From Escherichia coli (lineage in GTDB: Bacteria; Pseudomonadota; Gammaproteobacteria; Enterobacterales; Enterobacteriaceae): a stretch of DNA of 64,000 bases. The stretch's first letter is position 1. Each line of letters starts with the position of its first letter. The stretch lies in the NCBI RefSeq assembly GCF_050320075.1, contig NZ_CP190018.1. The stretch is one strand, 5' to 3'. A model generated the notes under the pieces. The model ran no database searches, was not told the origin of the DNA, and saw only the letters and a program-made list of their open reading frames with translations. The position numbers were made by a program, and so were the translations under genes. Shown here one piece after another: positions 28,838-30,085 of the stretch.

Positions 28838-30085
28838 TCAGCCAAATTTAGGTAACACGTTAAAGACGTTACCGAACCAGCATAAAATTACGGTTATACC
28901 AAAGAGAATGACAATCGCCGGAATAAGATTGCCGCCCCAGACCGTGAACATCTGATTGGGAAACTTCTTGCGAGCTTTGATTGCCAGCACCGCGGGGATA
29001 ATGACCGCCCAGATGGTGGCACACAGTCCGGCACCGCCGATCCCGTAAATGAAGCCGTTCGGGAAGATCAGATACAACAACGCAGGTGGCAGGAAGGTTA
29101 ACAGCACGGTTTAGAAACGCCCGCCGTGGGAGTTATCAATCTTAAACAGATCCGCCAGATAATCGAACAACCCCAGCGTGACACCAAAGAACGAACTGGC
29201 AACAGCTAAGTTGGAGAACACCAGCAGGCAAAACTCGATAATGCCGTGCTGTTTGGTGCCGAGGAACGATTTGACCAGCGAATCAACGTTGCCGCCTGAG
29301 GAGATTATCGCCTTAAAGCTTTCTCGTGGGATATTCCCCATCGTGCAATAGAGCCAGAAGAGATAAATCACCAGCGCCAGCAGCGAACCGAAGACCACGC
29401 TTTTGATTAGCTTATCTTTGCGTTTGCCATAGCAAATAATCAGGCTGGGAATATTGCCGTGGAAACCAAATGACGCCAGACACACCGGCAAAGCCATAAA
29501 GATATACGGGAAATAAGATGTACCCGCAGTGGTGCTGGTGGAATCGCGCAGAATGGAGTAATCGACCTGGAAGAAGAAAGAACCAAAAACAATTACAAAG
29601 GAGATAATCTTCAGCCCAAGGAACAATGAGGTAATACGACTGGCGGCTAACGAGCTTATCCACAATACGCTGGCAACGAAAATGGCTGTGCAGATCCCGA
29701 CAATACGTGGATTAGCGTGATAACCCAAATTCATTGATATCGTTTCACTAATGATCGCACCATTAGCAGAGATATAGGCATAAGTGAGGATATAGAGAAC
29801 GAAGGCAACGGTAATACCGCTGATAATGTTCCAGGTGTTACCGATTAAATCTTTGGTGATGGTGTTAAAACTGGAGCCGACGGGATAATTTAAATTTGCT
29901 TCTAATAACAACAACCCGGAATGAAGCATTGAAAACCAGGCAATGATAAGGATAAAGGCACCCCAGAAAAACCAGGCACCGGCAAGATCAACAGGTAAAG
30001 CAAACATACCTCCACCAATTACTGTACCTGCTATAACCATAACACCCCAAAATGCAGAGTGCTTTTTTTCAGCTTGATCAGTCAT
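28838..30085 (-). pseudogene. tnaB: Low-affinity tryptophan permease TnaB interrupted by an in-frame TAA stop
   Basis: Track ORFs 29111..30085 (324 aa) and 28838..29107 (89 aa) are in the same frame separated by one TAA (complement of 29111..29113). Reading ...HGGRF * TVLLTFLPP... is colinear with full-length TnaB. Confidence 0.85.

Follow-up and report, generated by a model that had tools for sequence, protein, structure and literature searches.

The tna operon and the interrupted tnaB frame

The window, by which we mean the whole 64,000-base stretch of E. coli DNA analysed here, carries the tna operon on its minus strand in the K-12 gene order tnaC-tnaA-tnaB-mdtL. The preliminary description of this DNA had called the leader peptide, the CRP site and tryptophanase intact, and comparison with K-12 bears this out. 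The 24-aa leader peptide TnaC (MNILHICVTSKWFNIDNKIVDHRP; 31813..31887, minus strand) and tryptophanase, TnaA (471 aa; 30177..31592, minus strand; TIGR02617, 1010 bits), are amino-acid identical to their K-12 counterparts, and the tnaC-tnaA spacer is conserved. The tna promoter sequence TGTGATTCGATTCACA (31963..31978, minus strand), which we take from established knowledge of this promoter to be the CRP-binding site, is also identical to that of K-12. Between the CRP site and tnaC, at about 31923..31935 on the minus strand, a short promoter segment reads AAATTTCTTGAGTATTATACTGTAG in the window and AAAAACTCTGAGTGTAATAATGTAG in K-12; this variant is a lineage-level difference and is not linked to the tnaB stop described below, because the window matches E. 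coli Ec-U3, in which tnaB is intact, except at three sites elsewhere. K-12 is also without a ShET2/EspL2-family type III effector gene that lies upstream of the CRP site in the window (32287..34455, plus strand), between mnmE and the tna promoter. At this place K-12 has only a 243-bp spacer, similarity to K-12 ends immediately upstream of the CRP site, and the effector protein gave no match among the NCBIfam profiles.

The tnaB frame, at 28838..30085 on the minus strand, spans 415 codons (1,248 bases), is colinear with full-length tnaB and is interrupted once, by a TAA at codon 325 (29111..29113). Around the stop the minus strand reads CAC GGC GGG CGT TTC TAA ACC GTG CTG TTA ACC (GGRF*TVLLT), and from this TAA to the native stop at 28838 there is no further stop codon. 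A truncation of TnaB after residue 324 by an in-frame TAA, as claimed in the preliminary description, is confirmed both by this reading and by the list of open reading frames, which holds a 324-aa frame at 29111..30085 (minus strand) ending at the TAA and an 89-aa frame that begins at the GTG at 29107 and is in the same frame as tnaB. The range 29105..29113 given in that description covers the TAA together with the ACC and GTG codons that follow it.

The stop divides the gene into a 5' part of codons 1-324 (29114..30085, minus strand), which encodes the translated, truncated product, and a 3' remnant of codons 326-415 plus the native stop (28838..29110, minus strand), which is still open but presumably untranslated. 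Both pieces align in order to NF007235, the NCBIfam equivalog profile for TnaB (415 positions), so that the colinearity claimed earlier for the rest of the gene holds: residues 1-324 align to positions 1-324 with 717.8 bits, which already exceeds the profile cut-off of 497 bits, and the 89-aa downstream piece matches positions 328-415 with 183.4 bits. PF03222 (Trp_Tyr_perm; E = 2.4e-118) is likewise covered in two stretches of its 393 positions, 1-314 by the translated product and 318-393 by the 3' piece. A Kyte-Doolittle scan of the repaired TnaB gave 11 hydrophobic peaks, at residues 23, 52, 96, 137, 163, 199, 239, 291, 337, 360 and 396, in agreement with the 11-segment topology that has reportedly been ascribed to the TnaB family; no solved structure of a TnaB homologue was found by sequence. 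Hydrophobic segments 1-8 belong to the 5' part, and the last three peaks (337, 360 and 396) lie beyond the stop in the 91 residues, or 22% of the protein, that are lost.

The score above the curated cut-off and the position in a tnaC-tnaA-tnaB operon, arranged and spaced as it is in K-12 and near relatives, identify the locus as tnaB by descent and context, but its product neither extends over the whole profile nor contains all 11 hydrophobic segments, and for that reason we classify it as a pseudogene. It has the features of a nonsense pseudogene: the stop replaces a codon that is sense in the orthologues, and the frame beyond it is colinear with theirs. Codon 325 is AAA (Lys) in the TnaB of K-12 MG1655 (b3709), which runs to 415 aa; the preliminary description was thus correct in giving the K-12 protein about 415 residues and a lysine here, and the reference protein does not end naturally at this position. 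AAA is present at codon 325 not only in K-12 but in Ec-U3, CFSAN061763 and strain 144 as well. Plus-strand base 29113, a T in every relative, is an A in the window; on the coding strand this is an A-to-T transversion at coding position 973 of tnaB, converting AAA (Lys325) into a TAA ochre codon.

Directly 3' of the native tnaB stop, folding of the minus strand predicts an 8-bp G+C-rich hairpin, AAGCCAGC-CAUUUC-GCUGGCUU (28806..28827), with no U run. No terminator was found between tnaB and mdtL by a consensus scan, and the hairpin is possibly a weak operon-end structure. With tnaB at the end of the operon, the nonsense codon is not polar on tnaA, and there is no operon gene downstream for it to affect. 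The stop may at most have a small polar effect on read-through into mdtL, if such read-through exists; in K-12, mdtL is regarded as a unit of its own.

Nearest relatives and rarity of the stop

The nearest record over the 64,000 bases is E. coli Ec-U3 (NZ_CM192149.1), a urine isolate from Burkina Faso, on which no paper was found in the literature searched. It differs from the window at three sites only: position 18729 in an IS1 terminal repeat (A in the window, G in Ec-U3), position 22266 inside espY4 (A7 in the window, A8 in Ec-U3) and position 29113, the tnaB stop. Ec-U3 has the same tnaB DNA but for this one base, with AAA at codon 325, and its annotation gives the gene as intact (WP_001551923.1). 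A second relative, strain 144, has A8 in espY4 and AAA in tnaB; because both relatives have the wild-type state at both places, the window alone carries the tnaB stop and the espY4 frameshift.

Several observations concern these relationships and the other differing sites. espY4 is a type III secretion effector gene (about 20345..22752, plus strand), and its poly-A run at 22266..22272 has seven residues in the window and eight in Ec-U3 and strain 144. The shorter run shifts the frame, and the open reading frame stops at 22309, some 150 codons early; an A-tract of this type is a typical site of homopolymer error or slippage. In yidZ (26606..27555, minus strand) a 10-bp deletion of nucleotides 653-662, at about 26903/26904, is seen in comparison with K-12, CFSAN061763 and strain 144. 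The deletion is common to the window and Ec-U3, where the gene is annotated as a frameshifted pseudogene, and it marks the two as sister strains. They also share the insertion of IS1 (about 18725..19492), which cuts a type III effector or pentapeptide-repeat gene (19488..20036, minus strand) that is intact in strain 144 at 1,188 nt, and homology to strain 144 begins exactly at 19493. At base 18729 the window, unlike Ec-U3, carries the canonical form of the IS1 terminal repeat, GGTGATGCTGCC.

In tnaB as a whole, 36 of the 1,248 bases differ between the window and K-12, and apart from the stop the two proteins are identical at 412 of 415 residues (the differences being L143I, A182S and S185T), whereas the product of the window's gene is 324 rather than 415 aa long. 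Codons 326-415 contain nine differences from K-12, all of them at third positions and synonymous, and a tenth difference in the 3' part changes the native stop from TAA in K-12 to TGA in the window. The restriction to synonymous differences indicates that the 3' part of tnaB was under purifying selection until very recently, and the comparison with K-12 revealed no second lesion in the gene. Judged from these patterns, the inactivation of tnaB is very recent, a picture that suits a brand-new mutation and a base-call error equally.

The allele was looked for in collections to which the source genome itself does not belong. Megablast of a 41-mer centred on the stop against 5,426 complete RefSeq E. 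coli genomes gave no hit; only carriers of the stop would match in this search, since megablast cannot seed a 41-mer across a central mismatch. An 81-mer around the stop matched 5,423 records from these genomes but was identical to none. At the level of the whole gene, about 130 complete E. coli genomes match the tnaB DNA at 1,247 of 1,248 bases, and none matches at all 1,248. The TAA-containing 39-mer CCCACGGCGGGCGTTTCTAAACCGTGCTGTTAACCTTCC was present in none of the contigs of the JGI/ENA metagenomes (241 million records), where the AAA version, serving as a positive control, was found in 43. Every other E. coli sequence examined has a sense codon at position 325, which makes the tnaB stop private to the strain analysed here. 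As an exact match, the 324-aa product is on record only from two unrelated public contigs of about 1 kb each, which were considered as other carriers and rejected: both are wild type and are cut by the contig end inside codon 325, after A in one and AA in the other. The match is a chance artefact and a trap for exact-match protein look-ups.

Loss of tnaB by other routes is uncommon in these collections. The gene is full length in 5,381 of the 5,426 complete genomes, with a contiguous copy missing in the remaining 45, and among the 35 full-length metagenomic copies obtained from the 43 wild-type-context contigs a single one has an independent lesion, a 10-bp deletion that shifts the frame and places the first stop at codon 290 (contig OCIU01004585.1). 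Independent lesions at such low frequencies fit ordinary mutation-selection balance. The literature searched held no relevant account of an E. coli tnaB that is a pseudogene or ends prematurely.

Mutation, error, selection or retained function

Our results are best explained by a real, recent and strain-private substitution that inactivates tnaB, a reading to which we assign a probability of roughly 0.6. A single-base change from AAA to TAA would have made tnaB a pseudogene in this Ec-U3-related E. coli, and the stop resembles the neutral or slightly harmful changes found in any one isolate. We find no difference in kind between this locus and the ordinary pseudogenes that PGAP annotates with an internal stop, in which a single in-frame stop interrupts a conserved core gene while the orthologues in relatives are intact. 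Whether it is taken as a strain-private nonsense mutation or as a base-call error, this is an ordinary event in a well-known gene, of a kind that has been seen before.

The main rival is an error of sequencing or of assembly (polishing), with AAA and an intact tnaB in the real genome; it is possible but appears rather unlikely. It would agree with the fact that the allele was seen nowhere else in the complete genomes and metagenomes searched, and with the small number of differences from the nearest relative, since of only three such sites both of the window-private ones break genes. The change from A8 to A7 in espY4 is a difference in homopolymer length of the kind classically produced by long-read or flow-chemistry sequencing, which makes errors in this assembly more probable a priori, and on the plus strand the base substituted in tnaB ends a T4 run (GGTTTTGAAA changed to GGTTTAGAAA). 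However, polished assemblies contain far fewer substitution errors than homopolymer indels, and the site of the stop is neither a Dam (GATC) nor a Dcm (CCWGG) motif. Disruptive changes are also over-represented among the recent real mutations of single isolates, and slippage in real A-tracts is so common that the espY4 change is no proof of poor quality.

Retention of part of the TnaB activity, either through reinitiation at GTG327 to give a split permease (TM1-8 plus TM9-11) or through low-level read-through of the ochre codon, seems to us scarcely credible. An in-frame GTG does lie 3 nt past the TAA at the head of an intact 89-codon frame, and complementation by split genes has a precedent in LacY, for which it has reportedly been obtained. 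An intact downstream frame is nevertheless expected in any case if the mutation is very recent, and GTG327 is preceded by a single SD-like pairing, which is weak (-5.5 kcal/mol) and, at 12 nt upstream, poorly spaced. Read-through is not favoured either, as a TAA followed by A is an efficient termination context and no suppressor tRNA is encoded in the window, which has no tRNA gene in its 64 kb. No orthologue organised as a split gene was found among the complete genomes and metagenome contigs searched. Programmed recoding or read-through was rejected outright, since the stop is absent from all other sequences searched while the wild-type context occurs 43 times in metagenomes. A split permease, if true, would represent natural fragment complementation in an APC-superfamily transporter.

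It is also very unlikely that the loss of TnaB is adaptive, with tryptophan uptake or indole output selectively lowered in a urinary or other host niche. Such an idea draws on the urinary origin of Ec-U3, on the independent tnaB lesions that do occur in nature (1 in 35 metagenomic copies) and on Shigella, where loss of the tna operon is recurrent according to Rezwan et al. 2004 as cited in PMC7364208. Against it, we have a single event in a single sequence, no clade of carriers in the data searched and no parallel lesion elsewhere in the tna operon, and full-length tnaB is kept in 5,381 of 5,426 complete genomes, independent lesions being as infrequent as 1 in 35. Taking the bolder alternatives as a pair, we see only the slimmest chance that the window holds either a split permease or, more modestly, a TnaB loss favoured by selection for lower indole output in the urinary tract.

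The preliminary description's picture of an operon selectively degraded for tryptophan uptake can be kept only in part. The truncation of TnaB stands, as does the integrity of the remaining operon. The notion of selective degradation, which suggests decay that is directed or far advanced, is unsupported: the evidence amounts to one private base change in a background that otherwise matches strains with intact tnaB, with no second lesion in tnaB, no lineage of carriers and no sign of selection. Decay of the tna operon is known from Shigella. In that group the tna region has suffered extensive IS-mediated damage, to go by the title of the report (Rezwan, Lan and Reeves 2004, J Bacteriol 186:7460; cited in PMC7364208), and the whole operon is absent in one S. 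flexneri subclade according to PMC7364208. What Shigella and the window have in common is that tryptophan catabolic or uptake capacity is lost through inactivating mutations in the same operon. The Shigella lesions, however, involve IS elements or loss of the operon in indole-negative lineages, while the window has one point mutation in one sequence, an intact tnaA and no IS element in the operon. The operon is base-identical to that of Ec-U3 except at 29113, and the only IS element near it is the IS1 at about 18725..19492, 9 kb away, which is not the pattern of Shigella-type IS-mediated decay.

Expected effect on tryptophan uptake and indole production

TnaB is a low-affinity tryptophan:H+ symporter of the HAAAP family (Trp_Tyr_perm). 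It is the main tryptophan importer under conditions that induce tna, while of the other permeases Mtr is repressed by tryptophan and AroP is non-specific (PMC6443796). If the stop is real, translation would end after residue 324 and give a product without the last three of the 11 transmembrane segments, and from the topology we infer that the truncated TnaB is most likely misfolded or inactive. The mutation would leave tnaC, the Rho/TnaC attenuation leader, the CRP site and tnaA untouched, and with leader, CRP site and tnaA unaffected tryptophanase should still be made and induced. The function predicted to be lost is the low-affinity uptake of tryptophan that is co-induced with tna. The expected consequences would be slower or reduced formation of indole from external tryptophan, poorer growth on tryptophan and a weaker positive feedback on tna induction. 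Partial cover by Mtr and AroP is assumed, the mtr and aroP genes lying outside the window, and the strain would probably remain indole-positive. A reduction in indole production by deletion of tnaB is mentioned in PMC11091664, which cites Li and Young 2013 for it.

Beyond annotation the significance of the stop is small: the tnaB entry needs either an internal-stop pseudogene label or a check of the base call. A real mutation, with slower indole formation from external tryptophan in a strain that still scores as indole-positive, could be a minor caveat for phenotype-based identification and for studies of indole signalling. The presence of two private disruptive changes, in tnaB and espY4, within 64 kb is a warning about the base-level accuracy of the assembly.

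Elsewhere in the window, four RNA elements matched Rfam families at the gathering score. On the minus strand these are the STnc410 sRNA (10154..10311), AsdA, the antisense RNA of the dnaA mRNA (39577..39657), and the ES036/CssrF sRNA (45134..45176), and on the plus strand a ROSE_2 thermoregulator is found upstream of ibpA (55306..55378).
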